DNA of 64,000 nt, taken from positions 309,287 to 373,286 of the forward strand of contig JBAZMP010000001.1 of the NCBI GenBank assembly GCA_041649715.1, given 5' to 3'. The number at the start of each line of letters is the position of its first letter. The stretch's first letter is position 1. The notes beneath the pieces were generated by a model, which ran no database searches, was not told where the DNA came from, and worked only from the letters and a program-made list of their open reading frames with translations. Below, piece by piece: positions 1-49,794 of the stretch. The translations under genes and the position numbers were made by a program. Origin of the DNA: Patescibacteria group bacterium. GTDB taxonomy: Bacteria > Patescibacteriota > Patescibacteriia > JAXHNJ01.

Positions 1-35
1 CAGAGTTAAGCCGAATGTCTCTTGGAAACGAGTGA

Positions 36-76
36 TTTTTTGGCTTGAATAAAAGCAGGAAAAATGCTAAGGTAGG
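36..76 (+). promoter_or_regulatory. Conserved ~40-bp upstream element, copy 1 (TTGAAT-17 bp-TAAGGT promoter-like) in front of dinD
   Basis: The sequence TTTTTTGGCTTGAATAAAAGCAGGAAAAATGCTAAGGTA is repeated almost identically at 1086..1126 in front of the next operon. It reads as a -35 TTGAAT, a 17-bp spacer, a TGn motif and a -10 TAAGGT. Confidence 0.45.
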
Positions 77-118
77 GGAGTAACATATACGAATTTCGGT
101 GGCTGGGAGAAAAAATAT

Positions 119-973
119 ATGGAAAAACAGATCATTGTCCGGCTGCATAAAAATTTCGAGGATTGCGCCCGCGAAAAAGACGGCGTGGAATTTTGGTATG
201 CCCGCGAATTGCAGGAATTGCTCAACTATGACAAGTGGGGCAATTTTGAGAATGTCATAAATAAGGCGAAAATAGCCTGCCGGAACGCGAAACAAGAGGT
301 CGCCGACCATTTTGCCGACGTCGGGAAAATGGTTGATTTGGGTTCCGGAAGCCAGCGTGAAGTGCCTGATATTATGCTGACGCGTTATGCCTGCTACCTG
401 ATCGCCCAGAATGGCGATCCGCGAAAAGACGAGATTGCTTTCGCTATGACCTATTTCGCGGTGCAGACGCACAAGCAGGAAATAGTCGAGCAGCGCCTGG
501 TCCAGTGGGAACGGGTGCGCGACCGGGGAAAGCTTTCTACTTCTGAAAAATCTCTTTCCGGCGTGCTTTTTGAGCGCGGAGTGGACAGCCAGGGGTTTGC
601 CCGGATCAGGAGCAAAGGTGATGCCGAGCTTTTTGGCGGATTAACAACTCAGGATATGAAGCAGAAATTAGGCGTGCCGAACAGCCGACCGCTGGCTGAT
701 TTTTTGCCCAGCGTAACCATTAAGGCCAAGGATTTGGCGAATGAAATAACTAGCCATAATATCCGGAAAGATACGGATTTGCGGGGGGAAGTTCCCATTA
801 CTTCAGAGCACGTGAAAAGCAACCGCAATATGCGCCAGATGCTCGGCAAGAGCGGCATTTACCCCGAAGACTTGCCGGCGGAGGAAGACGTGAAAAAGCT
901 TGAACGCAAGCTTAAGTCGGAAAATAAAAAATTGCCAAAGGCGGTTAAGAAGCTGAAAGATAGCAAAAAATAA
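119..973 (+). CDS. dinD: DNA-damage-inducible protein D (DinD)-like protein
   Basis: 284 aa. Strong collinear similarity to E. coli DinD as I recall it: ...GSGSQREVPDIMLTRYACYLIAQNGDPRKD... matches GSGAQRELEDVHLSRYACYLVVQNGDP. It also has FWYARELQELLNYDKWGNF and a basic C-terminus. Confidence 0.8.
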   Translation: MEKQIIVRLHKNFEDCAREKDGVEFWYARELQELLNYDKWGNFENVINKAKIACRNAKQEVADHFADVGKMVDLGSGSQREVPDIMLTRYACYLIAQNGDPRKDEIAFAMTYFAVQTHKQEIVEQRLVQWERVRDRGKLSTSEKSLSGVLFERGVDSQGFARIRSKGDAELFGGLTTQDMKQKLGVPNSRPLADFLPSVTIKAKDLANEITSHNIRKDTDLRGEVPITSEHVKSNRNMRQMLGKSGIYPEDLPAEEDVKKLERKLKSENKKLPKAVKKLKDSKK

Positions 974-1062
974 TCCCACGTTGAGACATTAGAAAAACAG
1001 CCCAAGCTCTAAAGTGCCGCTTAAAGATTGAATTTGTTAAATAGATAATAATAGGCTTTGTG

Positions 1063-1092
1063 GCGCCTCGCTGCGGCTCGGCGCCTTTTTTG
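1063..1092 (+). terminator. Intrinsic terminator after dinD
   Basis: GGCGCC-tcgctgcggctc-GGCGCC hairpin followed by TTTTTT. Confidence 0.5.
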
Positions 1093-1126
1093 GCTTGAAT
1101 AAAAGTAAGAAAAATGCTAAGGTAAA
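1086..1126 (+). promoter_or_regulatory. Conserved ~40-bp upstream element, copy 2 (TTGAAT-17 bp-TAAGGT) in front of the restriction-modification operon
   Basis: TTTTTTGGCTTGAATAAAAGTAAGAAAAATGCTAAGGTA matches copy 1 at 38 of 41 positions. Confidence 0.45.
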
Positions 1127-1213
1127 GGCATAAAATAACACAAATTTTGGTGGAAAATAGATTATAATACGGAGGTAAATTAAAAGAATTTTTGGGCAAT
1201 TAAATAAAAATAT

Positions 1214-3586
1214 ATGAATAGAAATGTAGTTGAAGAATATTTAAAAAAACAGAAAATAAAAGTCGTTGAGGAATTTGATTTTGAAAAAAAGAAAGTAAAA
1301 TATTCCGAAAAGATAAGAGGTTGGAAGATTGATAAATTTAGGGGCGATGAGGAAATCGTTAGAGCTTTTGTTCTTGCTAAACTTGTAAACGAATTGGGAT
1401 ATAAACCTGAGAATATTGAATTGGAAAAAGAATATGATATTGGTAGACCAAAGGTAAATAAACCCAGAATTGATATTATAGTTAAAGACGATAAAGACAA
1501 CGTTTTTTTGTATATTGAATTAAAAAGCCCCGCAGATTATGAAAAAGATAAGGATGAAGTAATTGAGAAACAACTTTTTAATCTTGCTTCACAAGAACAG
1601 GGCCAAGGTAAAAAAGTAAAATATCTCGTATTATATACAATTGAAATTGTTGAAACCCAGATAAAAGACAAATGTATTTTGATTGACTATGAAAAATTTA
1701 ATTCATTCAACACGTGGAAAGAAGTACGAAATTACGCAGATGAATTACCCGAAAGATATGAAAAAGCTCAAAAAGAACCATACGTAAAAGGTGGAAAAAA
1801 AGATTTAGAGACAAACTTTTCATATGAACAGCTTGATGGGCTGAGAAAAAATCTACATAATGTACTTTGGGGAGGTGGTGGAACAGATGACAACGATATT
1901 TTTTCGTCATTAGTAAATATTATTTTGGCAAAAATTCAAGATGAAAGCGAAAAAGAGGAAGGCGGAGAATATGACTTCCAAATTCGTTCATTTAAAGATG
2001 GCGAAAGTTTTGAAACCAACCAGCAACTTTTTATAAAAATAAATGATCTTTATATAAGAGCGTTAAAACAAAGATTAAATATTATTGACGAAAATGAGTT
2101 AAAAGAAAGCTTTGTAATTGATAAAAAGAAATTTTCTCTTGCAAAATTAAAATACACTATAATGCAAATCGAGAGATATTCATTTGTGGACGGGAAAAAC
2201 AGCTTTGACGGTAAAGATATTCTAGGAGACTTTTTCGAGGGTATTATTAGAGAAGGATTTAAACAAACAAAAGGTCAATTTTTTACGCATGTTAATATTG
2301 TAAGGTTTTTGCTTTGGGGGTTGCAACTTGATAAGCTAGCAATTGATAAAGTGAATAAAGATTTAGAAATTCCCTACCTAATAGATCCAAGCGCCGGTAG
2401 CGGCACTTTCCTGATTGAATATATGAAGTTTATTACCGAAAATCTCAAGAGAAGATTTAAAAGTAGACTAGCAAAAAAAAGAGACGTAGAGGACAAATTT
2501 AATCAATGGTTTATCCCTGACCACCGAGAAAATAAATGGGCACAACATTATATTTATGGCATAGAAACTAATTTTAATCTAGGTACTGCTACTAAAGTAA
2601 ATATGATTTTGCATGGGGATGGCTCAACTAATGTTTTTGTTAAAGACGGACTATTACCTTTTAATTATTACGACAAAGAAACCGCGCCGAACTATTTGAA
2701 GCAAAGCGAACAAGACAAAAACTACTTTAATAAAGAAGTAAATAAGCAATTTGACGTGATTATAACTAATCCTCCATTTAGTGTCACTTTGGATAATGAA
2801 ACAAAAGAGCATCTTACTAAAGAGTTTATTTTTGGAAGCACAAAAAACTCGGAAAATTTGTTTGTAGAAAGATGGTATCAATTATTAAAACCTAACGGAA
2901 GATTTGGGGTAGTTTTGCCAGAAAGTGTTTTTGATACAACAGAAAATAAATACATTCGTCTATTTATTTACAAATATTTTAAAATTAAAGCAGTAGTTTC
3001 TTTACCACAACTTACTTTTCAGCCGTTTACAAGTACTAAGACTAGTCTTTTATTCGCTCAAAAGAAAACTGATAAGGAAATTGAAGAATGGAATAAACTT
3101 TGGAGTAAATATAGTAGTGAATGGAGTGCTCTAAAAAATAAGTGTAAAAATTTATTATTGGTCTATTTAGAAAACAAAGACAAAAAGAAATTATCTTCAA
3201 TCAAAGATTTGTTAGAATCGGAGAAAAAAGAGATATTATTAAGAATGCTTAAAGATAATATTGAAGAAGATGATAAAAAATTATTAGCAAAAGAGCTGAT
3301 ATATAAATACAAAAGTGAATTAGTTGAACTTTGTGAATATGATAACGATACTAAAGATGTTTTTGGTTTTGTCAATACCTGGTGGGTTTTTAGTGAGGTA
3401 GCAAAAATACTCAATTACAAAATTTTTATGGCAGAAGTAGAAAATATTGGATATAAAAGGACTAAAAGAGCTGAAAAACCTATGCCAAACGAACTTTATC
3501 GCGTAAATGATAAAGGAGAAGTTTTAGTTGATGATGGCAGGATAGAAACTGCTTTAGATTATTTAAGAAAAGTGATATGGGATTAA
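1214..3586 (+). CDS. Restriction-modification bifunctional subunit: N-terminal HSDR_N-type PD-(D/E)xK nuclease domain fused to a gamma-class N6-adenine DNA methyltransferase (BcgI-A-like Type IIB, or a Type I M-like subunit)
   Basis: 790 aa. The N-terminal region has PRIDIIVKDDKDNVFLYIELKSP, a D..ExK nuclease motif. Methyltransferase motif I is LIDPSAGSGTFLIEY and motif IV is ITNPPFSV. The gene overlaps the downstream S gene by 10 nt and is extremely AT-rich. Confidence 0.75.
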   Translation: MNRNVVEEYLKKQKIKVVEEFDFEKKKVKYSEKIRGWKIDKFRGDEEIVRAFVLAKLVNELGYKPENIELEKEYDIGRPKVNKPRIDIIVKDDKDNVFLYIELKSPADYEKDKDEVIEKQLFNLASQEQGQGKKVKYLVLYTIEIVETQIKDKCILIDYEKFNSFNTWKEVRNYADELPERYEKAQKEPYVKGGKKDLETNFSYEQLDGLRKNLHNVLWGGGGTDDNDIFSSLVNIILAKIQDESEKEEGGEYDFQIRSFKDGESFETNQQLFIKINDLYIRALKQRLNIIDENELKESFVIDKKKFSLAKLKYTIMQIERYSFVDGKNSFDGKDILGDFFEGIIREGFKQTKGQFFTHVNIVRFLLWGLQLDKLAIDKVNKDLEIPYLIDPSAGSGTFLIEYMKFITENLKRRFKSRLAKKRDVEDKFNQWFIPDHRENKWAQHYIYGIETNFNLGTATKVNMILHGDGSTNVFVKDGLLPFNYYDKETAPNYLKQSEQDKNYFNKEVNKQFDVIITNPPFSVTLDNETKEHLTKEFIFGSTKNSENLFVERWYQLLKPNGRFGVVLPESVFDTTENKYIRLFIYKYFKIKAVVSLPQLTFQPFTSTKTSLLFAQKKTDKEIEEWNKLWSKYSSEWSALKNKCKNLLLVYLENKDKKKLSSIKDLLESEKKEILLRMLKDNIEEDDKKLLAKELIYKYKSELVELCEYDNDTKDVFGFVNTWWVFSEVAKILNYKIFMAEVENIGYKRTKRAEKPMPNELYRVNDKGEVLVDDGRIETALDYLRKVIWD

Positions 3587-4989
3587 ATAAATTTACAGTT
3601 GATTTTCAAAATATTGGTGAACAACAATTTTTAAGACCCAATTTTGGTTACAGGTATTTTTTTGATATTCAGAATGCGGAAATTTATCCTACAAAAGATA
3701 GTATTAAATTAAAATATGTCTTGAATGAGATGCCGATGAAGAAAGTAAGCAAGGGTGAATTAGAAGAGTCAGAAATTCTGATTGATATAGGAAATATTGA
3801 AAGAAGATTTAATAATTTAATAAATTTAGTAGAAGTAGATAGAATAGGTTCTGATAAAAATATAATGCAATATGGAGACATCATTATACCTAAATTGCAA
3901 CCACAAATGGGGAATATTTTTTTAAATTCTGGTCATAAAAGATTTATAGGATCTACCGAATTGCTTGAATATAAAATTAATGAAAATTATAATCCCATAT
4001 TCATTTATTACTTAATTACTTCTAATAAATTTCTTTTTGATCTAGCAAAATTGGAAAGTGGAAAAGCGCATAGAAGGGTAAATTCAGTAGATCTGTTAAA
4101 AATTAGAATTCCCTTAATATCTAAAGAATCGCAAGATTTAATTGTTGCTCAAATATGGCCGATTGAAAAGAAAATTAATGAACTAAAAAAACAAATTGAA
4201 CAACCTCAAAATGTTATTAATAAAGTTTTTGCAAGAGAATTTGGTTTTGATTTAGAAAAATATGAAAAGTTAAAGAAAGATAAGTTTTCCGAAGTAGATT
4301 TAAAAGATATTTTGAGACATAATTTTGTTAGAATAAGTTTTCATTTTCATCATAAAACTCTTATTGCCATTGAAAATAAATTAAAAAATAAGAATTATTG
4401 GGCGCCGGTTAATTCATTATTTAGTTTATTCGGTGGAAAAAGAATACCAAAGGGTAAGAGTTTTTCGAATATCGAAACGGACTATTATTATTTAAGACCT
4501 ACGGAAGTAAGTATTTGGGGTATTGATAAGATTAACGTTCCATTTATCCCTGTATCAATTTATGATCAGTTAAAGAGATATAAAATAGTAACGGATGAAT
4601 TTTGTATTTCAATTGTCGGTACTTTAGGGAAAACCGCGTTAATTAACACAGATATTTTAGATATAGGAAAAGATAATTTAATATTAAGTGAAAACTTTAT
4701 TAAACTAAAACCTAAAAAACATATAAATAGTTTATTTTATATTTACTTTTTTTATAGTTTTATTTTTGAAGCGCAAATTAATAGAGAATATACCATAACA
4801 TCAATAAAAAAATTAGGTATTGATAAATGGAATAATATAAAAATTCCATGTATTTCTATTATAAAACAGCAAAAAATTGTTGATGAAATCAAGGGTGAAT
4901 TAGACAAACAAGAAAAATTTTATAAGAAAATTGAAATGGAAAGAGATAAAATTGATGAGATTATTGAAAAAGTGATTATTCGTGAATAG
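3577..4989 (+). CDS. hsdS: Restriction-modification specificity subunit (HsdS / BcgI-B-like, two target-recognition domains)
   Basis: 470 aa. Two variable domains are separated by the conserved central coiled-coil spacer (LISKESQDLIVAQIWPIEKKINELKKQIEQ). The C-terminus has a matching repeat (IKQQKIVDEIKGELDKQEKFYKKIE). It is translationally coupled to the methyltransferase gene. Confidence 0.8.
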   Translation: MGLNKFTVDFQNIGEQQFLRPNFGYRYFFDIQNAEIYPTKDSIKLKYVLNEMPMKKVSKGELEESEILIDIGNIERRFNNLINLVEVDRIGSDKNIMQYGDIIIPKLQPQMGNIFLNSGHKRFIGSTELLEYKINENYNPIFIYYLITSNKFLFDLAKLESGKAHRRVNSVDLLKIRIPLISKESQDLIVAQIWPIEKKINELKKQIEQPQNVINKVFAREFGFDLEKYEKLKKDKFSEVDLKDILRHNFVRISFHFHHKTLIAIENKLKNKNYWAPVNSLFSLFGGKRIPKGKSFSNIETDYYYLRPTEVSIWGIDKINVPFIPVSIYDQLKRYKIVTDEFCISIVGTLGKTALINTDILDIGKDNLILSENFIKLKPKKHINSLFYIYFFYSFIFEAQINREYTITSIKKLGIDKWNNIKIPCISIIKQQKIVDEIKGELDKQEKFYKKIEMERDKIDEIIEKVIIRE

Positions 4990-6031: not shown

Positions 6032-6598
6032 ATGAGTAATCTTGAAACATTTTTCGAACAATTCGAAGAATGGGTGCTAAAAGATATTAAAATAGTACTA
6101 GAATTAGTAAATAAAGAAGGTAATTCATTAGCCCCTGATAGAAGAGTGGTGGTTTGGCGGCGCCCGCTTGTCGCCGGAGTTATATTAATATGTTGCGCTA
6201 TCGATACATTAGCCGCATTTCGTTATGGCCGAACTAATAATAATGTGGGAACATATTTTATGCGCTTTGTTAGAGATTATTTTGCGCAAAGCCGTGACAC
6301 TAGATATAATGATGAGCAAATCTATAAGGGGTTACGTAATGCATTATTACACGGCTATTCTCTTGGATCAGATTTAGCATTAAGTCATACTAGCGCTTCA
6401 CGGCATTTGACGAAAGAAGCAAACAAAATAGTTATAGATGTATTTTCACTGCAGCAAGATTTAGAAAAAGTATATTCTATCTATAAAAGTGAATTGAAAA
6501 ATGGACAACATATTCCAGAATTTAATGATAGATGGAATTACGCACCTCTTATTCAATATTTTCCTGATATAGATTTAAAACTTAATAGCAGAAATTAA
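6032..6598 (+). CDS. Hypothetical protein (defense-island associated)
   Basis: 188-aa ORF with no recognisable motif. It follows the nuclease-like gene 46 nt downstream and is followed by a strong terminator. Confidence 0.5.
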   Translation: MSNLETFFEQFEEWVLKDIKIVLELVNKEGNSLAPDRRVVVWRRPLVAGVILICCAIDTLAAFRYGRTNNNVGTYFMRFVRDYFAQSRDTRYNDEQIYKGLRNALLHGYSLGSDLALSHTSASRHLTKEANKIVIDVFSLQQDLEKVYSIYKSELKNGQHIPEFNDRWNYAPLIQYFPDIDLKLNSRN

Positions 6599-6871: not shown

Positions 6872-7293
6872 GATTTTTTTCCTTTGTTAGACTATACTTA
6901 GGAGTCGACCTTTAATTTACTCCCAGGACAAAAACCAAATAATTTAGTTCCTATCAGGGGAGAATTAAAAGCGACTTAATCTAGATATAGAATAAGCGCC
7001 GGATTTTACCTCGCCAGCTTTTTCAAAGAGTTTTTAACAGCTACATACTAACGAATAATAATGTCTCTGTCAAGTAGGTTTATTATTTTAGCTAAAAAGC
7101 TTATAATAAATCCATGTCCAAATACTACAACTCTAAGCGCACCAAACATCTTTTTGACCCTACCTTTTTTAACGCTATTTGTTATAAGCACTAAATCCGA
7201 AATACGAAACTCTAAACAAATTCTAATTTCTCAAATCCGAAATTCGAAACTGAGGGTTTTAAAAGCCAAAGACGATAACGAAAAACAAGCGGT

Positions 7294-7405
7294 AGAGGGG
7301 GTCCGGGGGAAAAACTGAAAGCCAAACGGCCATACGGAACAACCTTACCCACCTCTCGCGGTTTTTTTCCCCCGGAACTTTTGCTACTTTTAGTTATAAA
7401 AGTAG
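7294..7405. repeat. Structured repeat family A, copy 1 (GGGGTCCGGGGG ... CCCCCGGAAC long hairpin plus a small 3' hairpin)
   Basis: GGGGGTCCGGGGGAAAAACTG...CGGTTTTTTTCCCCCGGAAC, then CTACTTTTAGTTATAAAAGTAG. Related copies lie at 10409..10530, 12596..12755 and 12866..12955. Confidence 0.7.
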
Positions 7406-7409
7406 AAAT

Positions 7410-7525
7410 ATATCAGTACAGACAAAAAAGTAAGTAGGGGATAATCAAAAAAGACTGTCTACCCTTCGAGGCTCAAGCCTGTCCTGAGTGGCATCGAAGG
7501 ACACCTCAGAGTGACAGTTTTATTT
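7410..7525. repeat. Structured repeat family B, copy 1 (AGTAGGGGATAA..CTGTCTACCCTTCGAGGCT-[variable]-CACCTCAGAGTGACAGTTTTA)
   Basis: The conserved 5' and 3' arms can pair (CTGTCTACCC with GGGTGACAG) around a variable core. Copies lie at 10141..10215, 10560..10640, 10700..10795 and 12757..12790. Confidence 0.65.
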
Positions 7526-7695
7526 TGATTCTTTTTCACCAAAAAAACAAACAATCAACCAAGACATTTTTTATCCGCCCGCTAGCCTTAGCGTGTTTTT
7601 TGTATGAAGAAGTTTATCCACCTTGACTTAGAAAGGTATATATATTAGTGTTAAGTTAGTACTAATTCAGTAAATTAGCACAATCTACTAATTTT

Positions 7696-8283
7696 ATGAA
7701 ATGGCTAGATTTTGAGCGAAAAATTAAGAGTAAAAATATTAAGCTGTTCACGCCGCTTGATGTGCAGAGATTTTTAGGCCGGTCTAAAATAGCCGCCCGT
7801 TTTTTGATCCATCGCCTGAAAAAAAATGGCTATATTGTGAGCCTCAAACGCGGTTTGTATAAGCTGTCCGATGAACAAATTCCGGATCTGTATCTGGCCA
7901 ATAATATTTACGCCCCCTCGTATGTTTCCCTGGAATTCGCCCTTTCGTACCACGGAGTCATTCCCGAAACTGTCTATGAGATAACTTCGGTTACCACCAA
8001 GGCCACCCGCCGGTTTGAGGCGCTGGGAAAAGTTTTTTCTTACCACAAAATAAAAAAACCGGCTTTTACCGGCTATGTCATCCAAAAACAGGGCGGGTTG
8101 GGTTTTCACGTCGCCGAACCAGAAAAGGCTTTCGTGGATGCGAATTATTTTCGGCTCTTGGACGGCCGAAAACCGCTGTCCCGCTTCAACAAGGATAAAA
8201 TTGATTTAAAAAAGGCCTTGTTTTATGCCGCTCTTTTCGGCAATCAGAAACTTAACAATATAATTAAAACAACGCTTCAATGA
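7696..8283 (+). CDS. abiEi: Type IV toxin-antitoxin system antitoxin AbiEi (winged-HTH transcriptional regulator)
   Basis: 195 aa. The N-terminus MKWLDFERKIKSK...FTPLDVQRFLGRSKIAARFLIHRLKKNGYIVSLKRGLYKL is typical of AbiEi. The gene overlaps the downstream gene by 4 nt (ATGA). Confidence 0.75.
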   Translation: MKWLDFERKIKSKNIKLFTPLDVQRFLGRSKIAARFLIHRLKKNGYIVSLKRGLYKLSDEQIPDLYLANNIYAPSYVSLEFALSYHGVIPETVYEITSVTTKATRRFEALGKVFSYHKIKKPAFTGYVIQKQGGLGFHVAEPEKAFVDANYFRLLDGRKPLSRFNKDKIDLKKALFYAALFGNQKLNNIIKTTLQ

Positions 8284-9023
8284 TTTCCCAGGAATTAATA
8301 AAAAAAATAGCCAGTCAGAATAAAACAGCGGATTTTCCCAATATTGTCCGCGAGTATTTTCAGCACCTTTTTTTATCCGAGCTCTATAGATTATCCGGCG
8401 CCGAGAATTTGCTTTTTAAGGGCGGGACCGCTTTGCGCATTATCTACGGCAGTCCGCGCTTTTCCGAGGATTTGGATTTTACCCTGATCGGCGTTGAAGG
8501 TTACCGGAAAAAGGAATTCGCGGAAAGCCTGTTTCTCAGCGTTTTGACCGAGATTGAAAAAATCGGCATTAAGGTGGAGATAAACCGGAAGTCGGATGAG
8601 ACCCGCGAGGGTTATTTTGGCGATGCGAACTATCAGGTTTATGATTATCCCGAAACGTCCGTGAGTATAAATATATCCTCAAGAGAGGGAAAAGATATTA
8701 AGGGCGAGATTGATTCCATCGCCAATGATTTCATACCGACTTATAATATTCTGCATCTGTCAAAAAATGTGTTGGTGGAAGAAAAAATAACGGCCGCGAT
8801 CACTCGGGCGAAACCCAGAGATTTTTACGATGTCTATTTTATCCTTAGAAAAAATTTGCTGGCGACAGAAAATAAAAAAATACTCCCTGACATCCTTGAT
8901 AAATTGAATAACACTGATATTAATTTTACCCAGGAATTAGGCATTTTCTTGCCGAAGGATCAGCAGCAAATAGTGAAAGATTTCAAGAATATTTTAACTT
9001 CTGAAATAAAGCGTTATATTTAG
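8280..9023 (+). CDS. abiEii: Type IV toxin-antitoxin system toxin AbiEii (DUF1814 nucleotidyltransferase)
   Basis: 247 aa. It has the nucleotidyltransferase motif LFKGGTALRIIYGSPRFSEDLDFTL (GS...DxD), and its size and operon partner are typical. Confidence 0.75.
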   Translation: MISQELIKKIASQNKTADFPNIVREYFQHLFLSELYRLSGAENLLFKGGTALRIIYGSPRFSEDLDFTLIGVEGYRKKEFAESLFLSVLTEIEKIGIKVEINRKSDETREGYFGDANYQVYDYPETSVSINISSREGKDIKGEIDSIANDFIPTYNILHLSKNVLVEEKITAAITRAKPRDFYDVYFILRKNLLATENKKILPDILDKLNNTDINFTQELGIFLPKDQQQIVKDFKNILTSEIKRYI

Positions 9024-9036
9024 CCTTAACATATTT

Positions 9037-10059
9037 ATGGAAACCAAAAATCCAATGAAAACCAAAAAGTGGCTCTGGTACGCCGCAGCGGCTCTTTTAT
9101 GTTTTATCGCCATCGCCGCTTTTGCCTGGAGCGCGGCCAATAAGAGCAAGAATACGAACGCGGTGGCCGTGGCCAATAAAAACGTAAATTCGGCTGCTAA
9201 TTCCAACGCCGCAGCTGGTCAGAACGCCAATAGCAGTCTGGCCAATACCAATACGAACACCAATAATAATACTAATGCCAGCGCCAATACCAACGCTAGC
9301 CAGATCGTGACCGCGGCCAAGACCATTGATGAAACAGCCATTACGCTGGTGCAAAAAAGTACCGGCCACTGCGAAGCCTTGGCTCCTTTGGACTGGTCTT
9401 TTGTCACCAATGCCGAAGGGAGCGGCGCGGATCTTTATTCCGCCGATAAATCCTTGAAAGCCGCCATGCACGCCGGCTGGGGGATCTCGGCCGTCTATAC
9501 CTACATGTATCCGACCGTGGATTCTTTTCTTTCCGCCTGGCTCGGTTATGCTTATACCGGTTCATTTACCAACGGAGGCATTACCTTGGCCGCCGCCCAG
9601 GATGTTTATGAAGGTTTTATCCAGCGGGAATTTACCACCTCAAACGGCCGCAAAGGGGTGGCGATATACAAGACCTACAATTTCGGCGACCCGACCATGT
9701 ACGTGGTTTCCGTTTATATCGCCGATACGGCCAGCGACAAGTGGGAGACCAGCGGCGCTCAGCCATTTTACGTCGCCCTGACCATCCGCTGCGTCACCCA
9801 GCTCCGGCCGGTAACTTCCAGCGTTGATCCTTACACTTCTGATCCGGGCAGTTCTTCTGACAATCCCGAAGTGGGCCTGTCTGACAAATGGACCGAAGCC
9901 ATTATGGGTTATGAAAATGTCTATTCCCCGACCACGGGGGAGCATTACGAAGCGCCCCTTACTTCCGAGTGGCAGGGCGGTCCGCAAGGAACCGGTTATT
10001 ACCGCAGCCTTCCCAATGGCGGTTATGAAAAACTTGAACCGGGGTTTGGAGAGTACTAG
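9037..10059 (+). CDS. Membrane-anchored extracytoplasmic protein of unknown function with an Asn-rich linker
   Basis: 340 aa. A basic N-terminus and one TM helix (WLWYAAAALLCFIAIAAFAW) are followed by an NTN/NAN low-complexity linker and a globular domain. GC content is markedly higher than in the neighbouring genes. Confidence 0.6.
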   Translation: METKNPMKTKKWLWYAAAALLCFIAIAAFAWSAANKSKNTNAVAVANKNVNSAANSNAAAGQNANSSLANTNTNTNNNTNASANTNASQIVTAAKTIDETAITLVQKSTGHCEALAPLDWSFVTNAEGSGADLYSADKSLKAAMHAGWGISAVYTYMYPTVDSFLSAWLGYAYTGSFTNGGITLAAAQDVYEGFIQREFTTSNGRKGVAIYKTYNFGDPTMYVVSVYIADTASDKWETSGAQPFYVALTIRCVTQLRPVTSSVDPYTSDPGSSSDNPEVGLSDKWTEAIMGYENVYSPTTGEHYEAPLTSEWQGGPQGTGYYRSLPNGGYEKLEPGFGEY

Positions 10060-10830
10060 GCAGATAATATTATTGTCATACTGAGGAGCCATGAGATCCT
10101 GAGTCGCATCGAAGGACGAATGGCGTCTCGAAGTATGACCGTTTAGACACATAAAAGCCTGTCTATCCTTCGAGGCTCGCATTGCTCGCACCTCAGGGTG
10201 ACAGTTTTAGTTTTATTTGAAATTCGGTGCATCGGATTTAATCGTCAGGCGGCGAAGCGTTGACGAGCCGCCACTAAGAAAAAGTTAGCAGTAATTTAAG
10301 CTTTCAGCAGGCTGGGGTCTCTGCCTACGGCAGACAGGTGGGGGCTTCATCGCCTTAAATATTTTACAGCGTTTTTTGCTATTAAAAATAACGAAAATTT
10401 AATGGGCGAGGGGGTCCGGGGGAAAAACTGAAAGCGAATGGGCTACGCGGTAAAACCAACCCCCTGTGCTCGCGGTTTTTTTCCCCCGGGGCTTTTGGTT
10501 CTTTTGGCCTCAAAAGAACAAGACAATCAGCCTTGCCCCCTAAAATAAAAATTTTCTAAAGGTAAAAACTCACCCTTCGAGGCTCCCATTCGACGCGGCT
10601 CATGCTCGCACCTCAGGGTGACAGTTTTATTATTTTGGTTTTTGGAGTCTGCCCTGAGTGGCAACGAAGGGGTTACAAAAGTTGAAATACTTCGGCACAG
10701 ACTAAAGATTGAGTAAGGGATAAACAGAAGAAACCGTCTACCCTTCGAGGCTTAGGCGTTGCCTTCGCACCTCAGGGTGACAATTTTAGTTTGCATTTAT
10801 CAACTTTATAAGATTAAAATAAAAGACCCT
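10060..10830. repeat. Non-coding island densely packed with structured repeat modules (families A and B, a TTAGCAG..GCTTTCAGCA module and an AGCCTTGCCCCC..AAAATAAAA module)
   Basis: Family A copy at 10409..10530. Family B arms at 10158..10215, 10571..10640 and 10735..10795. A CTGCCCTGAGTGGCAACGAAGGGGTTACAAAAGTTGAAA module at 10644..10690. No credible ORF. Confidence 0.7.
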
Positions 10831-11637: not shown

Positions 11638-12531
11638 ATGCAAAAAAAATCCTGGCTTAGCCTCATTTATTTTCTGGTTTTTGGCTTATTAATAATTTTT
11701 ACTTTCTTATTCAAAAGCCGTTCTCTGCTGTATGTAGTAATTCCCATTTTTTTTGGTTTTATCGTGGTTTTGAGTTTGATAAATGTTGGAGGCAAGATGT
11801 TTTCTTTTTCCAAAGGTTTGATGACCATGAGTAAAACCGGGCCGGTTTTTACCTCTAAGGTCTGGTCTTGGCGGGAAGGGGAAACGATTGATTTCGCCGA
11901 TATTTTTCCGGGGTTGAAGGACGTGACCTCATTTTTCAGTGAAATGCCACTGCCGAAAATAAAACCGGAGAGAGTGGCGATTGGAGAAAAAGAGGGGGTG
12001 AATTATAATATTTACCGGCTTAATTTCACGAATATCGTAAAAGTTCCGGCCAGCCGCAAACCGGGCTTCCGGCCGCTGATAATCCACGGGGTTAAAGCGC
12101 CGGGAATGAGCGGGGGCTTGAATTCAAGTGTGAGCCAGAGCTTTAATATTTTGCAGGCCAGATTGACTTTTCCTGGATCTTTCCCCGGCCGTTTGATTAT
12201 CCAAAGAGTTGCCGGGCCGACCTTGGGCCGTGATATTGATCTGGAAAGCGTGGAATTTAACAAAAAAGTTCAGGTCTATACCAATCAGGCCAAAATCGCT
12301 TACCAGATTTTATCCCCGGATTTTATGGACTGGTATTTGAAACTGCCTGATCAGCCGGTTATCGCTTTTGACCAACAGATATGTTATTACACCCTGATCG
12401 GATTCAGTAATAAGGGTGAGGAAGAGATTACCGCCGATATTGAACAATTGATTGACCGCGTCCTGCATTCAGGGGCTTTAACCTTATCCCAAATCCCAAA
12501 TCCTAAATCCAAAACAAATCCCAATATCTAA
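11638..12531 (+). CDS. Hypothetical membrane protein (two N-terminal TM helices plus a globular domain)
   Basis: 297 aa. TM helices are LSLIYFLVFGLLIIFTFLF and VVIPIFFGFIVVLSLINV. The last roughly 12 codons (PNPKSKTNPNI) are encoded by an AAATCC-type repeat. Confidence 0.55.
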   Translation: MQKKSWLSLIYFLVFGLLIIFTFLFKSRSLLYVVIPIFFGFIVVLSLINVGGKMFSFSKGLMTMSKTGPVFTSKVWSWREGETIDFADIFPGLKDVTSFFSEMPLPKIKPERVAIGEKEGVNYNIYRLNFTNIVKVPASRKPGFRPLIIHGVKAPGMSGGLNSSVSQSFNILQARLTFPGSFPGRLIIQRVAGPTLGRDIDLESVEFNKKVQVYTNQAKIAYQILSPDFMDWYLKLPDQPVIAFDQQICYYTLIGFSNKGEEEITADIEQLIDRVLHSGALTLSQIPNPKSKTNPNI

Positions 12532-13175
12532 ATCTGAAATTCGAAACACGGCGGCGTCGTCTCATTTTATGGTGAACAAAAGTAATCAGAAAGCGTGGGG
12601 GCTCCGGGGGTTTTCCTCAGTCCGCAGGGGTTTTAGCGTCTATTTACGCAAATCTTGAACGAATTAAAACCCCCGGGGCTCTTTGGTACTTTCTGGCCCC
12701 AGAAAGTACAAGCAAACAGCCTTGCCCCCAAAAATAAAATTTTCAAAAAAGTAAAACTAACCCTTCGACGCGGCTCAGGGTGACAAGAGGAGAAAGGCGG
12801 CGAAACCAGGGGCGAGCCGCCTAGTGAATAAAAATTAGCAGATACTTTATGCTTTCAGCAAAACAGGGGTCCGGGGGGAATGCTCGACTTTGCGGCTTTT
12901 AGCATTTATATGAGTTTTAAGGGGGCAATCATTCCCCCCGGAACTTTTGCTACTGGAGCCTGCCCTGAGTGGCACCGAAGGGGTTACAAAAGTTGAAAGA
13001 TAGCATCTAAAAAAACAGCTAAAGTAAAACAAAATAATAAACCAAAAAATTACTCTCGCCCGTCTTACGCATAGGTCGATCTTTTTGGCTAATTTAAGCA
13101 GAAATAACAAAAAGACGTTAATTTTGACTAAATCGGCTAAAATCGCTATAATAAAGTTAAATACAGGAGGGGAAA
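12532..13175. repeat. Non-coding island of structured repeat modules (family A copies 3 and 4, a family B fragment, and others)
   Basis: GGGGGCTCCGGGGGTTTTCC...AAAACCCCCGGGGCTC at 12596..12680. GGGGTCCGGGGGGAATG...CATTCCCCCCGGAAC at 12866..12955. CTGCCCTGAGTGGCACCGAAGGGGTTACAAAAGTTGAAA at 12958..13000. Confidence 0.7.
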
Positions 13176-14499: not shown

Positions 14500-14672
14500 T
14501 TTAAATCCTAAATTCTAAATCCGAAAATCTAAACAAATCTTAAATTCTAAATTCCAAATTCAAAACCGGTTTGGAACATTGGAAAATTAGGGCTTCGAAT
14601 TTGTTTCGGATTTAGGATTTCGCGCTTCGAATTTATCTGAATTTTGGTGCTTGTAATTTGGAATTTTGAAGA
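14500..14672. repeat. Long AT-rich palindromic hairpin of the AAATYC/GAATTT family (probable bidirectional terminator)
   Basis: AAATCCTAAATTCTAAATCCGAAAATCT...TTTCGGATTTAGGATTT. The two arms are near-perfect reverse complements across more than 60 nt. Confidence 0.65.
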
Positions 14673-15125: not shown

Positions 15126-15146
15126 GAATATTAGTATTAAAATAAT

Positions 15147-16421
15147 ATGGAAGATCAAACTCAACCCAATCCGACAAAGGAAAAACGCCCTCAAAAAACC
15201 AGCTTGCTGGCCATTCTTATTTTGATCGCCGTCCTGCTCGGGGCGATCATTATCGCCGGCTACTTCTATTTTGTTCCGGCGGACAGGGAGAATAAAAACA
15301 CCAATCAGGTGGCGGTCAGTTCCAATTCTAATGAAAATCAGAACACCAGCCAGCTTTTAGGCGGAGATGAAGATGAGCACGGCTGCAAAGGTTCGGCCGG
15401 CTATTCTTGGTGCGAAGCTAAGCAGAAATGCTTGAGAATTTGGGAGGAGGTCTGCCCAAGTAGCTTTAATAATTTGGGAAATAGCGCCCCCACTTTATCG
15501 GGCGAATTCTGGATGATTCAAAATTATACCGCTAAATTAAAGAGTATTAATATTGCCAATAAAGAGATTAAAGAATGGACGGAATATCCAAATCAACCTC
15601 AAAATAGCGAAAATGAAATACCGGCGCCAAAAGGTAATCACATGTTATATAATAAAAAAGATACTGACGGAAATTGGGCCTTGTATGTTTCTGAGACCAA
15701 TGGTAAAAATGAAAAACTTATTACGACTGGCGGGGTGTGTACAGATGGTCCGTGTTCCAAAGAAAATACTTATGGAGTGGGCAAAATTTCTCCGGATGGG
15801 CAATATGTTTCATTCAGAAAAGGAGAAAATAGCATTGTTAAAAATCTTGTCACTGATAAAGAAACCATTCTGCCCTTAAAACTGACTCTCGCTCCTGCGG
15901 CTTTTACTCCTCTTCAGACATATGTTTACACAGTTTCACAAAAGGAAAATGAGGTTAATTATTACCTGGAAATCGGCAAGTTATCAGATACTGAATTTCG
16001 CTTGATTAATCCCGCACTTTCCCTTTTTTATGCCATTGATTTTTCGCCGGACGAAAATTATTTTGCCATTAGTGGTAATCAGGGAGTTTGCATCTATGAG
16101 ACAAAGACCGGCCAGTTATTAGACAAAAAAGAGAGTAATGATATGTCAGGAATTTACGAAATAGTTTGGCTATCAAACAATAAGCTTATTTTGCGGACTC
16201 ATAATTCAGTTTTGCATCAATTTACTTTAATCGATCATAAAATTACCGAAGAAATAATATACAAAGCCGAATATTTAGACTCCCTTTTTAGAATAGATGA
16301 CAATAATGTTCTTTTGCGATCCGGCGGTAATGATTTGATAGTGATTAATACGACTACCGGAACTATAACCGAAGTTTATTCAAGTGACGATTATTTCGCT
16401 ATTTTAGGGTCAAAGGAATAA
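15147..16421 (+). CDS. Signal-anchored secreted protein with a Cys-rich module and TolB-like beta-propeller repeats
   Basis: 424 aa. The N-terminal leader KEKRPQKTSLLAILILIAVLLGAIIIAGYFYFVPADRENKN is shared with the next gene. Repeats such as SPDGQYVSF and FSPDENYFAISG are propeller-like. Confidence 0.6.
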   Translation: MEDQTQPNPTKEKRPQKTSLLAILILIAVLLGAIIIAGYFYFVPADRENKNTNQVAVSSNSNENQNTSQLLGGDEDEHGCKGSAGYSWCEAKQKCLRIWEEVCPSSFNNLGNSAPTLSGEFWMIQNYTAKLKSINIANKEIKEWTEYPNQPQNSENEIPAPKGNHMLYNKKDTDGNWALYVSETNGKNEKLITTGGVCTDGPCSKENTYGVGKISPDGQYVSFRKGENSIVKNLVTDKETILPLKLTLAPAAFTPLQTYVYTVSQKENEVNYYLEIGKLSDTEFRLINPALSLFYAIDFSPDENYFAISGNQGVCIYETKTGQLLDKKESNDMSGIYEIVWLSNNKLILRTHNSVLHQFTLIDHKITEEIIYKAEYLDSLFRIDDNNVLLRSGGNDLIVINTTTGTITEVYSSDDYFAILGSKE

Positions 16422-16447
16422 TTATATTAAATAGTCGAAAAAAATAA

Positions 16448-17311
16448 ATGCCAAACCAACCTCAAATTAATCCGCCAAAGGAAAAACGCCCTCAAAAAAC
16501 CAGCTTGCTGGCCATTCTTATTTTGGTCGCCGTTCTGCTCGGCGCGATCATTGTCGCCGGCTATTTCTATTTTGTTCCGGCGGACAGGGAAAACAAAAAT
16601 GCCAGCCAGGCGGCGGAAAACTCTAATATTAATGTAAATTTAAATAATAATGAAAATCAGAATAATAATTCAAATAATAGCGCTAGCGCAAATGAGGTAA
16701 AGACAGCCATTGGCTTGGTCAGCTTAAGCTGTGCCACGAAATCTGACTGTGTGTTAATTGGTAAAGAGAAAGATTATGATTGTTGCGGCATTGGTAGTTG
16801 CCTCGACTATTCTCAGGGGATTTGGGTGGCGGTGAATAATCGTTCTTTCCAAGAAATTATCGAGCGACATAATTGTAATATAGCCTGCCCTGATAATATG
16901 GAGGTATGTTTTTATAATGATTATTATGAAGTAGGATGCCAGAATAACCGCTGTCAAACGATAAAAGTAACTAAGACTACTGAAAATTCCGATTCAAATG
17001 AAATAAGTGTAATCGGCGGTCAGGTGAGTTTGAGTTGTTCTTCAAAGCAAGATTGTCGATTGATTGACAAAGAAAAGGACTATACCGTTTGTTGTTCTCA
17101 ATATTCTCAACCGGACTATACCAAAGGGATTTGGGTAGCGGTCAATAGTAGTTCTTTCCAAAAAATTGTTGGCTCTAACAGCGCCTGCAAATTGAAAGTC
17201 TGCCCGGATAATATGGAAGTATATTATAGCGGTAATGTTCCGTATGAAGTGGCATGCCAGAATAACCGCTGTCAAACGATAAAAATAAACAGGACTATTG
17301 TTGAGTATTAA
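16448..17311 (+). CDS. Signal-anchored secreted protein with a tandem duplicated 8-Cys domain
   Basis: 287 aa. The leader is about 92 percent identical at the DNA level to that of 15147..16421. There are two roughly 90-aa repeats (VSLSC..DC.LI.KEKDY..CC......GIWVAVN..SFQ.I......C....CPDNMEV.Y......EV.CQNNRCQTIK). Confidence 0.65.
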   Translation: MPNQPQINPPKEKRPQKTSLLAILILVAVLLGAIIVAGYFYFVPADRENKNASQAAENSNINVNLNNNENQNNNSNNSASANEVKTAIGLVSLSCATKSDCVLIGKEKDYDCCGIGSCLDYSQGIWVAVNNRSFQEIIERHNCNIACPDNMEVCFYNDYYEVGCQNNRCQTIKVTKTTENSDSNEISVIGGQVSLSCSSKQDCRLIDKEKDYTVCCSQYSQPDYTKGIWVAVNSSSFQKIVGSNSACKLKVCPDNMEVYYSGNVPYEVACQNNRCQTIKINRTIVEY

Positions 17312-17317
17312 AGAATA

Positions 17318-17368
17318 TGGACCGAATATTCACTTCGCAAACCTTAGACAAGGTAGACAAAAAATAAA
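17318..17368 (+). pseudogene. Remnant duplicate of the aspS 5' end (encodes MDRIFTSQTLDKVDKK then a stop)
   Basis: About 50 of 55 nt identical to 18660..18714, the true aspS start. Confidence 0.7.
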
Positions 17369-17376
17369 TAAAATTT

Positions 17377-18648
17377 ATGTTAAATCAAATTCAACAAAAT
17401 CAGCCTAACCAAAAGAAGCCGAAAAAAAGTCTCGCTCCAATATTAACTCTCGGTTTCATCGCCGCCCTTTTAATAGCGGCCATGTCTTTTGGGTACGTGA
17501 AATACATCAAGAATGGGAACGAGAATGCGAACAATTCAGTGGCCTGCACCATGGAGGCCAAGCTCTGTTCGGACGGCTCGGCCGTTGGCCGCGTGCCGCC
17601 TACTTGCGAGTTCGCGCCCTGCCCCAATGAAAATGGGAATTCAAATGTTAATTTAAATGCCAATGTCTCGGTCAATGCCAATGAAAATTTGAATACCAAC
17701 ACAGCGGTCAGCGAAGTAGAAAAATGGCAGAATTATCAACTGGAATACGATAAATTTGGCAAGCTCACTTCTTTTTCCTATAAGTATACCTATAATCAAC
17801 AGACAAAGATTGTTACTCCATTTGATATCGCATTATATCGCGGCTCGGTGACTCCTTATGGTGTTATTTTTTTTAAAGTCGGAGAAATGAGGCAAGCCAC
17901 GGGTACGAATATCGGAGAATTTAGCTATGAATACGGTATCAATCCGGATTTTCAATTGTTTAATTATCAGACCCAGTCTTTTAAATCATTGCCGGCTTTT
18001 TCTTTGAAACTGGCCGGAAGCCAATTTGAAAGAATTTACGCCCTGCATTTTTCCGCGACCGAACCAAAGATATTGGTTGAAATCGGAGAATACGATACCA
18101 GTAGCTCTCATTTCGAGCCGGGACTGGTAGAAAGCCAGCCGGTGAAGACCCACGGGGTGGTCTATGACGTCGTCACCAACCAGTATTTGACCGGCGACCC
18201 CTTGACGATCTATTTAGATCTGATCGGCCAAACCACGACATTGTGGAACGGTATGTCCTGGGATAGTCTGCACCAGATCGCGGTGGCGGCGCCGGGCGGG
18301 GAAGGATGTGGCGCTTATAATTCTTTGACAGTTGTCTACCTGGATCAAGAAAGAGCCGTGACCGTCGGCGGTGAAGGCAGTTTCAATTTTAAAAAAGAAA
18401 TATGCAACCCAAGTAACGGGGTAAGCCCTGATCGTAAATGGTTTGTTTTAGATGGATGCAATAACGAAAATAAATTCGACGTCAATCTCTTTAATTACGC
18501 CAGTTTTCCTGAGCCAATTCTAAAAAAACTCTCCATCTCGGTTTCGAATAATAATGTTTGTCATGTTTATGTGAAAGAATGGAATATCAGTCAGACCTAC
18601 CCGATCATTACTTTTAATGACGGCACGATTATTAATTTTAACGAATAA
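17377..18648 (+). CDS. Signal-anchored secreted protein of unknown function (Asn-rich linker)
   Basis: 423 aa. An N-terminal TM anchor is followed by NGNSNVNLNANVSVNANENLNTN and a large globular domain. The gene is flanked by the aspS-start direct repeats. Confidence 0.6.
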   Translation: MLNQIQQNQPNQKKPKKSLAPILTLGFIAALLIAAMSFGYVKYIKNGNENANNSVACTMEAKLCSDGSAVGRVPPTCEFAPCPNENGNSNVNLNANVSVNANENLNTNTAVSEVEKWQNYQLEYDKFGKLTSFSYKYTYNQQTKIVTPFDIALYRGSVTPYGVIFFKVGEMRQATGTNIGEFSYEYGINPDFQLFNYQTQSFKSLPAFSLKLAGSQFERIYALHFSATEPKILVEIGEYDTSSSHFEPGLVESQPVKTHGVVYDVVTNQYLTGDPLTIYLDLIGQTTTLWNGMSWDSLHQIAVAAPGGEGCGAYNSLTVVYLDQERAVTVGGEGSFNFKKEICNPSNGVSPDRKWFVLDGCNNENKFDVNLFNYASFPEPILKKLSISVSNNNVCHVYVKEWNISQTYPIITFNDGTIINFNE

Positions 18649-37671: not shown

Positions 37672-37845
37672 CAAACTAAATTCTAAATCCGAAATCCTAA
37701 ATTCTAAACAAATCATAATATCTAAATCACAAATTCGAAACCCCATTAGAAATTCTATTTTTAAATAGGAAACCGGTTTGGGACATTGGAAAATTATTGC
37801 TTCGAATTTGTTTAGGATTTAGAAATTGAGATTTGGAATTTTATC
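37672..37845. repeat. AAATYC-family long palindromic hairpin
   Basis: AAATTCTAAATCCGAAATCCTAAATTCTAAACAAATC ... GATTTGTTTAGGATTTAGAAATT. The arms are complementary. Confidence 0.65.
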
Positions 37846-45440: not shown

Positions 45441-45735
45441 GTTTAAGAATATGAGCGACTTGGATCTTAGTGAAATTAGTAAAACAGTTCCAAAAAATTG
45501 GGATACTTCTTCAATGTCTTCAGAGCCCAAGCCCGAGATTACCACCGATAGAGATTATAACCAATTATACATGGATAATTTAGACCTGAAGCGTGAAATA
45601 AAAAATCTTGAAAAAGAACTTGGGGAACAGAAAGACAGATATAAAAGACTGAAAAATTATCTTATTGAAATTGTTATAGGAGTAATAATAGTTATTATTG
45701 GCGCTTTTTTAATAAGCATATTAAATATTAATTAA
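45439..45735 (+). CDS. Hypothetical coiled-coil protein with a C-terminal TM helix
   Basis: 98 aa. The C-terminus is IEIVIGVIIVIIGAFLISIL. Confidence 0.4.
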   Translation: MFKNMSDLDLSEISKTVPKNWDTSSMSSEPKPEITTDRDYNQLYMDNLDLKREIKNLEKELGEQKDRYKRLKNYLIEIVIGVIIVIIGAFLISILNIN

Positions 45736-45743
45736 TATAATTT

Positions 45744-46037
45744 ATGAACGGAGAATCACAACAAAAAGTTAACATCAAGGCCAATGATGAGACCATGATA
45801 GGCGCTTACGCCAATAACATGATGGTGGCGCATTCCAAAGAGGAATTTGTTATGGATTTTATTCATCTTTTTCCGCCCCAAGGGTTGCTCGTTTCCCGAG
45901 TTATTACATCTCCTGGTCACATGAAACGGATTATCTCTGCCTTACAGGACAATTTAAAGAAGTACGAAGAAAAATTCGGAAAGGTTGAGCAGGCCGAAGC
46001 GCCTAAACAAGAAGGAGTAGGGTTTGAAACAAGGTAA
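45744..46037 (+). CDS. DUF3467 family protein, copy 1
   Basis: 97 aa. YANNMMVAHSKEEFVMDFIHLFPPQGLLVSRVITSPGHMKR fits the DUF3467 pattern. It is about 85 percent identical to 48453..48743. Confidence 0.65.
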   Translation: MNGESQQKVNIKANDETMIGAYANNMMVAHSKEEFVMDFIHLFPPQGLLVSRVITSPGHMKRIISALQDNLKKYEEKFGKVEQAEAPKQEGVGFETR

Positions 46038-48337: not shown

Positions 48338-48452
48338 GGTTGATTCCTCCTTTTAAACATTTTCTCAAAACAACATCCCGATAATTCCAGTATTAGTCCG
48401 GATTCATTATTTTGTCAAGTCATTTATATTAATTAACTAAGTATTTAAACCT

Positions 48453-49639: not shown

Positions 49640-49794
49640 CTCGCACGCTCCTTGTTAAAGGACAAAGGAATCCGAGAAGAAGTTTAATGCCATAAAATTA
49701 GCAAAGGTTAGATTTTTTGTCAATAAATCCCGTTAGAAAAGCGATTTCTATCGGGATAAAAAATCCCCTGATGGCAGGGGATTAGACGTTAAGT

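Follow-up and report, generated by a model that had tools for sequence, protein, structure and literature searches.

A predicted sigma-70 promoter and leader present in two copies around dinD, upstream of a BsaXI-like restriction-modification operon in a Patescibacteria genome

In a 64,000-nt stretch of contig JBAZMP010000001.1 (GenBank assembly GCA_041649715.1, positions 309,287 to 373,286; hereafter the window), which belongs to the metagenome-assembled genome of a Patescibacteria (CPR) bacterium, a short direct repeat stands once in front of dinD, the gene for a homologue of DNA-damage-inducible protein D, and once in front of a Type IIB restriction-modification (RM) operon. The repeat is likely to be a sigma-70-type promoter with an extended -10 element together with its 5' leader, and its two copies, which bracket dinD, would have arisen by insertion of a single-gene cassette, probably dinD itself, with duplication of the adjoining module. 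Two neighbouring transcription units that carry copies of one promoter are a small and ordinary piece of genome anatomy, and promoter duplication or propagation at the insertion of accessory genes is a known phenomenon, of which this is a new example in a little-studied phylum.

The pattern TTTTTTGGCTTGAATAAAAG[C/T]A[G/A]GAAAAATGCTAAGGTA is found at 36-74 and 1086-1124, both times on the forward strand and nowhere else in the window, and 100 dinucleotide shuffles produced no match. An earlier, sequence-only reading of this DNA had pointed out a near-identical element of 40 nt that occurs twice about 1 kb apart; it measures 39 nt, and 37 of the 39 positions are identical, the differences lying at 56/1106 (C/T) and 58/1108 (G/A). 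The distance to the start codon, measured from the end of the repeat, is 44 nt for copy 1 (dinD ATG at 119) and 89 nt for copy 2 (RM ATG at 1214), in agreement with the 'roughly 45-90 nt' of that reading, and at a spacing of 1050 nt the two direct repeats exactly bracket dinD. Homology exceeds the 39-mer, as BLASTN aligned 36-102 with 1086-1153 (68 nt, 83.8% identity, E=5e-12), and the left edge of the repeat is sharp, at the T-run. Across about 84 kb of the contig (the window with 10 kb added at either end, out of at least 382 kb), no third copy was found, degenerate ones included; the two copies seen both precede genes, namely dinD and the RM gene, and do not behave as a common intergenic repeat without bias towards gene starts. 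An nhmmer profile of promoter plus leader likewise gave no third copy, the far end of the AT-rich RM block (see below) included, the next best match having E=1.9. The exact pattern TTGAATAAAAGNNNGAAAAATGCTAAGG had no match in the GTDB genome, JGI metagenome, and IMG/VR collections, in which the source contig itself is likewise unmatched. An assembly artefact could be ruled out, since two independent assemblies agree over the whole locus (13,959/13,959 nt) and the copies are not identical to one another.

Both copies read T6-GGC-TTGAAT-N14-TGC-TAAGGT, an arrangement of the extended -10 type with TTGAAT and TGCTAAGGT as the predicted core parts; a TTGACA-related -35 and a TAnnnT -10 thus lie 17 nt apart, within the 16-18 nt allowed for sigma-70 promoters. 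A default promoter scan (at least 9 of 12 hexamer matches) did not list the element because only 4+3 of 12 match. When TTGA..-N16-18-TAnnnT sites were listed along the contig, its gene-proximal promoters were found to follow cTTGAC[AT]-N14-TG[CT]-TAAnnT, typically 45-66 nt before start codons, and TG[CT]TAAnnT is present in at least ten other gene-proximal sites. A position weight matrix trained on 16 other promoters of the contig, the two copies excluded, scored both copies at 14.5 bits (rank 21-22 among ~168,000 positions). The -10 lies 45 nt from the ATG of dinD, which is in the typical range, and 90 nt from that of the RM gene, the latter because of a tandem leader. Anatomy, placement, and fit to the contig consensus therefore all agree with the earlier description of the element as promoter-like.

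Substitutions between the copies are unevenly distributed. None falls in the 25 positions of T-run, GGC, -35, TGC, -10, and +1, as compared to 11 of 42 in spacer plus leader (Fisher p=0.005), and both differences within the 39-mer lie in the spacer between -35 and -10 (1106 and 1108 in copy 2). The invariant T-run, -35, TG, and -10, with changes in the spacer only, suggest selection on RNA-polymerase contacts and not on an operator, and zero change at these contacts is the pattern expected for two working promoters. Being near-identical, the two predicted promoters should give the dinD and RM units the same sigma-factor dependence and similar strength.

The leaders that follow are related as well. 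The remainder of the dinD leader (75-121) finds its best alignment in the start-codon-proximal part of the RM leader (1170-1216), a score that none of 3000 shuffles reached, and AAAAATATATG is present at both start codons; the RM leader thus appears to consist of two tandem units of ~45 nt, L2a (1125-1169) and L2b (1170-1213). When these were compared with the dinD leader (L1) as three units, the observed scores were reached by 0 (L1/L2b), 20 (L1/L2a), and 9 (L2a/L2b) of 3000 shuffles, and the score of L1 against L2a aligned in register was reached by 1 of 5000. L2b is the closest match to the dinD leader (nhmmer E=1e-5). Leader identity amounts to ~66-70%; the 39-mer has 95%, as compared to ~68% in the adjoining leader (Fisher p=0.006), and spacer (2/14) and leader (9/28) show no significant difference in divergence (p=0.28). 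Just 5' of the RM start codon, the reverse strand of TTTGGGCAATTAAATAAA (1190-1207) reads exactly like a conserved stretch of dinD codons (YLIAQ) found in several AT-rich copies of that gene (18/18 to locus L072, E=0.002 in a 0.66-Mb database); at 18 nt this match is too short to interpret and is probably due to chance, or else a tiny relic.

The gene calls of the sequence-only reading, dinD and restriction-modification, proved right. The open reading frame (ORF) at 119-973 is a DinD equivalog (NCBIfam NF008573, 347 bits at a cutoff of 242) that matches the PADLOC candidate PDC-S13 (3e-114), and the gene behind copy 2 encodes a homologue of RM.BsaXI (PDB 8w0p_A, E=1.3e-275), which is followed by a gene for an S (specificity) subunit. 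The two overlap by 10 nt, which suggests that RM and S form an operon. Between dinD and copy 2 lies an intrinsic terminator whose T6 (1086-1091) doubles as the first 6 nt of the second promoter copy; dinD is therefore predicted to be monocistronic and the RM operon to rely on its own promoter, the two being separately transcribed units with near-identical predicted promoters. For annotation, this offers a promoter consensus, cTTGACA-N14-TGyTAAnnT, for an uncultivated Patescibacteria lineage, and the prediction that the BsaXI-like RM operon is transcribed apart from dinD. The dinD terminator hairpin, GGCGCCTCGCTGCGGCTCGGCGCC (1062-1085), has a nearly identical counterpart ~3.9 kb upstream, at 7051-7075 of L001 (a stretch that includes DNA upstream of the window). 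Another hairpin, CCCGTTAGAAAT..ATTTCTAACGGG, is fused to a TTGACA -35 at L001 8515-8566 and, on the minus strand, at window positions 49716-49763, and one resembling it was seen by eye near L001 7081-7110; terminator/promoter hairpins are reused sequence modules in this genome.

The arrangement around dinD does not stand alone. Self-comparison of 74 kb of the contig revealed several families of short intergenic repeats, the other module families being different sequences, and the same bracketing architecture (one gene between direct repeats of 50-95 nt taken from the 5' region of the downstream gene) was seen twice more. In one case, two near-identical promoter-leader copies of 76 nt stand before neighbouring genes without homology to each other, one of 377 aa and one of 675 aa with a PEGA domain; a 16-codon signal-peptide-like ORF lies between the repeat and the PEGA gene. 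In the other, 53 nt of the 5' coding end of aspS are duplicated (17317-17368 versus 18660-18712, 90.6% identity), the upstream copy being a 16-codon relic (MDRIFTSQTLDKVDKK and a stop codon) just 5' of a 423-aa ORF (17377-18648), which in turn stands directly before intact aspS. This layout makes clear that the insert is the gene between the repeats and that the repeat stems from the 5' end of the resident gene it displaced; it looks as if a nearly bare ORF had entered an essential gene at its 5' end and the target had been duplicated.

The same holds for dinD in other genomes. Among 80 dinD loci compared, dinD lies between direct repeats of 43-94 nt in L003, L031, L033, L045, L048, and L063, which stem from Patescibacteria and Bacteroidota, and the repeat sequences are unrelated between loci. 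By flank-against-flank alignment, 6/73 dinD genes have significant flank repeats, as compared to 8/286 neighbouring genes (p=0.044). NYN-domain genes were likewise seen between repeats (L012 5538-6092, L031 165-794).

A plausible scenario is that a single-gene cassette was placed beside a resident gene and the 5' regulatory module of the resident became duplicated; by analogy with the other cases, the insert would be dinD with its terminator, placed in front of the RM operon. Copy 1 would then drive a monocistronic dinD transcript that ends at the hairpin and U6 (1062-1091), and copy 2, starting in the same U/T tract, would drive the BsaXI-like Type IIB RM operon. Later, selection may have held the polymerase-contact elements identical, while spacer and leader diverged by drift and the RM leader was duplicated in tandem. 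Upstream sequences are conserved neither among dinD homologues nor among RM homologues, which argues for a local module that was not imported with either gene; the closest homologues are 81% (DinD), 83% (RM), and 79% (NYN) identical, and their upstream regions share nothing with the window.

Several points weigh against this scenario. A syntenic relative that would display the ancestral state was not found, the flanking genes having at most 83% identity to any homologue. GC content is ~48% in dinD and hence host-like (background 45-50%), as compared to 24-31% in the RM block, and an RM newcomer that captured the dinD promoter would be the more natural reading of this difference; the direction of the event is thus uncertain, and direction and mechanism alike are inferred from the comparisons above. 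The -35 TTGAAT agrees with TTGACA at 4/6 positions only, and promoter activity and transcription start sites of both copies are predictions from sequence. In addition, a leader divergence of ~30% next to 5% in the promoter requires selection, divergence between donor and recipient at integration, or gene conversion; the enrichment of flank repeats at dinD is modest (p=0.04); and further copies of the repeat are possible elsewhere in the genome, the census having covered ~84 kb of the contig.

The main alternative, somewhat unlikely in our view, reverses the order of events. Here, an AT-rich RM cassette would have arrived without a promoter 3' of dinD and captured a copy of the dinD promoter and leader, possibly through tandem duplication of the whole promoter-dinD-terminator unit followed by deletion of the second dinD down to the RM start codon. 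The RM gene indeed opens a block of foreign composition, the drop in GC beginning exactly at copy 2 and its leader next to a host-like dinD, and it has no Shine-Dalgarno sequence of its own, being joined, up to its ATG, to a leader like that of dinD. Elsewhere, RM and Methylase_S form a conserved two-gene core of homologous loci that moves as a unit, with upstream DNA unrelated between genomes, and spontaneous tandem duplication is reported to activate horizontally transferred genes (PMC11111574). In the clearest analogues, however (the aspS 5' relic and the tpiA and hsdM 3' relics), the insert lies between the repeats; no remnant of a second dinD in + orientation is present within 1125-1213, and dinD is the gene that is recurrently repeat-bracketed in other genomes.

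It is improbable that the 39-mer, spacer included, is an operator for a shared factor (LexA-like, a defence-island regulator, or possibly the Bro-N protein DinD itself) that would make dinD and the RM operon a small regulon. The sequence-only reading had suggested co-regulation by a shared promoter or operator, of which the promoter half stands with the near-identical promoters, whereas no operator-like feature was found; its further proposal of an SOS-like or defence-specific regulator site was not borne out, given the lack of inverted repeats and of LexA boxes of the scanned types. E. coli dinD is under LexA control, and this general knowledge speaks for an operator, as does the 95% identity of the 39-mer beside ~68% in the adjoining leader. 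DinD-family genes moreover stand directly 3' of Type I RM genes at ~18% of 55 related loci, with HsdM as the gene directly before dinD at 7/55 and HsdS at 3/55. A 9-nt palindrome of the leader, CRAA-T-TTYG (91-99 and 1141-1149), also stays symmetric through paired G>A and C>T changes, but it is short and AT-rich and could easily be due to chance.

Against these observations, neither upstream region holds an inverted repeat with a seed of at least 6 nt, and the 39-mer itself shows no dyad or direct-repeat substructure. CTGT-N8-ACAG is absent from the entire 64-kb window, and CGAAC-N4-GTTCG (up to 2 mismatches) is absent from 1-118 and 974-1213, with 20 occurrences window-wide as compared to 25 expected; the boxes scanned are the Gram-positive and E. 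coli types, a published Patescibacteria-specific motif lying outside the scan. The resemblance to the LexA-repressed dinD promoter of E. coli therefore lies in the downstream DinD equivalog, the difference in the missing boxes. With no LexA box of the scanned types, and with the gene in relatives recurring most often beside Type I RM genes, the designation 'damage-inducible' holds by homology only, and the name dinD should not be taken as evidence of an SOS link. RM operons controlled by C proteins through C-boxes provide another comparison, as they share a dedicated upstream regulatory region. Unlike these, the operon has no C-protein-like (helix-turn-helix) domain by Pfam in its ORFs (three of which have no Pfam match) and no palindromic C-box upstream, and a BsaXI-like fused R-M polypeptide needs no delayed nuclease expression. 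Nor was a regulator-like domain found by Pfam in adjacent ORFs of no assigned function.

An overlapping operator would be expected to lie in the spacer, yet this is where both substitutions fall, and the spacer is no better conserved than the leader in any significant way. Equivalent duplicated modules also stand before unrelated non-defence genes on the contig, which counts against a defence-specific operator. Summed up, no evidence of a dedicated operator was seen, and the sequence gives no support to a role of the repeat as a shared SOS or defence switch. A leader motif, 'ACAAATTTTGGTGG', apparently present in four neighbouring promoters, was rejected, with 11 window matches as compared to 13 expected and no in-register alignment by MAFFT.

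That dinD is exactly bracketed by direct repeats with a spacing of 1050 nt, and is repeat-bracketed in several genomes, might also suggest that the repeats are ends carried by a mobile dinD cassette itself (attL/attR-like, or those of a transposon), with a coincidental likeness to promoters. We consider this very unlikely, as the repeats differ fully between loci, being pieces of local neighbours (hsdM 3' end, tpiA 3' end, local promoters) and hence target-derived instead of element-carried; no integrase or transposase is found in or beside the 1-kb unit, lengths of 43-94 nt are unlike the fixed target-site duplications of transposases, and a complete promoter anatomy lies at a canonical distance from both start codons. 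Least credible of all is a cis-acting RNA common to both mRNAs (riboswitch, attenuator, or small RNA): although homology spans the transcribed leader up to the start codon, the best-conserved part lies 5' of the predicted transcription start, the leaders are only ~66-70% identical and fold no better than shuffles (minimum free energy z=+0.48 for the dinD leader and -0.24 for the other), and Rfam gave no match at E<=1 in 1-1400 and, at the gathering threshold, one tRNA only in the window and L001.

Among known systems, putative mobile promoters (PMPs) come close. These are defined as homologous upstream sequences of at least 50 nt and at least 80% identity before non-homologous coding sequences in one genome, screened from -150 to -50 relative to the start codon, and the definition is operational, with no mechanism implied (Matus-Garcia, Nijveen & van Passel 2012, PMC3488235). 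With 68 nt at 83.8% before DinD and the RM subunit, proteins that are dissimilar (best BLASTP E=1.5), the present repeat fits this operational definition; the upstream coding sequences are unlike too (a 23S_rRNA_IVP protein and DinD, of different Pfam families), and the 76-nt pair at 98.7% on the contig also qualifies. It differs in that the screen window for dinD (~-31..69) holds only 34 nt of copy 1, so that the original pipeline would probably miss the repeat, and in that the family here has two members, adjacent and bracketing one gene, and is not dispersed.

A second parallel is provided by the promoter early stem-loop elements (PeSLs) of T4-type phages, which comprise an AT-rich tract, a sigma-70 promoter, a stem-loop terminator, a leader, and a start codon, flank single accessory genes, and number ~50 per phage genome, dispersed but concentrated in plastic regions (Arbiol et al. 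2010, PMC2839356). Recombination between PeSL modules shuffles genes and gives mini-circles or deletions (PMC2839356). Copy 2 has the corresponding terminator hairpin (1062-1085), T-run, promoter, and leader, and in L031 from Kuenenbacteria one and the same module recurs at NYN, dinD, and a third gene, which follow one another. Differences are that the present genome is that of a cellular Patescibacteria member and not of a phage, that only two copies in 84 kb were found, and that copy 1 lacks a stem-loop, although its T-run is present.

Genes 'embedded' in defence systems (Payne et al. 2024, bioRxiv 10.1101/2024.01.29.577857; the PDC set of PADLOC) are a third point of comparison, DinD corresponding to PDC-S13 and a 306-aa ORF further downstream to PDC-S18, both of them PADLOC candidates for phage defence. 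The position of dinD beside an RM system fits the recurrent association with RM genes noted above, with the difference that dinD lies here outside the RM operon, as an upstream unit with its own predicted promoter and terminator, and that the RM system is of Type IIB and not Type I.

What deserves most interest is that single genes, dinD and NYN among them, repeatedly turn up between such repeats, a lead that we put forward as a hypothesis. Tentatively, and with more doubt than confidence, small stand-alone accessory genes such as dinD and NYN may each travel as a cassette of one gene, in Patescibacteria and, it seems, in some Bacteroidota, and their integration would regularly duplicate 45-95 nt of the target (promoter-leader, 5' or 3' coding end of the neighbour). 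Candidate routes would be a single crossover of the Campbell type, in which circularised fragments share short homology with the target, or long staggered cuts of variable length. If true, insert and displaced resident gene would both automatically gain a working promoter, in what would be a cellular counterpart of the PeSL as 'mobile regulatory cassette' of phages. Single accessory genes between long, locus-specific copies of the 5' or 3' end of a neighbour suggest a simple route to expression signals for horizontally acquired genes in streamlined genomes.

Table 1. Features of the dinD-RM locus (window coordinates unless stated otherwise) and of comparable repeats.
Feature	Position	Strand	Basis or remarks
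Promoter copy 1 (predicted)	36..74	+	T-run 36-41, GGC 42-44, -35 TTGAAT 45-50, 17-nt spacer 51-67, TGC 65-67 (last 3 nt of spacer), -10 TAAGGT 68-73
dinD 5' leader, unit L1	75..118	+	Shine-Dalgarno GGGAG 105-109; predicted transcription start near 80
dinD, DNA-damage-inducible protein D homologue	119..973	+	Pfam Bro-N; NCBIfam NF008573; PADLOC PDC-S13
Intrinsic terminator of dinD (predicted)	1062..1091	+	GGCGCC 1062-1067 ... GGCGCC 1080-1085, then T6 1086-1091; terminator scan and RNA fold
Promoter copy 2 (predicted)	1086..1124	+	T-run 1086-1091, -35 TTGAAT 1095-1100, TGC 1115-1117, -10 TAAGGT 1118-1123
RM leader unit L2a, promoter-proximal	1125..1169	+	Alignment to L1
RM leader unit L2b, start-codon-adjacent	1170..1213	+	AAAAATATATG at ATG; no Shine-Dalgarno at functional distance
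RM subunit, fused restriction-methylase, Type IIB BsaXI-like, 790 aa	1214..3586	+	HSDR_N_2 + N6_Mtase (Pfam); PDB 8w0p_A
S (specificity) subunit, two target-recognition domains	3577..4989	+	PADLOC Specificity_I, 1e-22
ORF matching PADLOC candidate PDC-S18, 306 aa	5065..5985	+	PADLOC 1.9e-100; no Pfam match; AT-rich block
ORF without assigned function	6032..6598	+	No Pfam match; AT-rich block
Second promoter-leader pair, 76 nt, 75/76 identical (98.7%)	L001 3569-3644 and 5895-5970 (window -6313..-6238 and -3987..-3912)	-	TTGACA-N13-TGT-TAAGTT
dinD-bracketing repeats	L003 3953-4009/4848-4906		hsdM 3' end
dinD-bracketing repeats	L031 (Kuenenbacteria) 83-166/913-1011/1854-1948		Terminator-promoter-leader module before NYN, dinD, third gene
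dinD-bracketing repeats	L045 3878-3954/4874-4947		tpiA 3' end
dinD-bracketing repeats	L048 3829-3915/4847-4934		
dinD-bracketing repeats	L063 3859-3952/4937-5030		
dinD-bracketing repeats	L033 3860-3940/5102-5183		

The RM and S genes together are a very mobile two-gene cassette. Homologues of the RM subunit with ~80% identity occur across Patescibacteria, Nanoarchaeota, and Melioribacteraceae. On the same contig, upstream of the window, a 23S-rRNA-IVP-type gene, an NYN gene, and others are found. The former (a gene for a four-helix-bundle protein at L001 9379-9744, window -503..-138) lies directly 5' of copy 1, between inverted simple repeats of the AAATCC / GGATTT type; related repeats of 57-66 nt are present in the window at 7191-7250, 12491-12547, 14508-14566, and 37685-37741.

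Longer repeats occur as well. In the accessory region from about -3 kb to 13 kb, GC-rich repeats of ~120-250 nt (window 7275-7527 and 10388-10793, 72-78% identical) directly bracket an AbiEi/AbiEii/340-aa cassette (7696-10059), and a second GC-rich pair is inverted (L001 6860-7027 and window 12835-13001, 80% over 172 nt); the two pairs align poorly with each other and have no Rfam match at E<=1. A direct repeat of 299 nt (78.6%) is located at 45718-46015 and 48426-48721, mostly intergenic near small minus-strand genes, and another of 200 nt (85%) at 15139-15338 and 16441-16639 comprises the 5' ends (8 nt upstream plus ~190 nt coding) of adjacent 424- and 287-aa genes.

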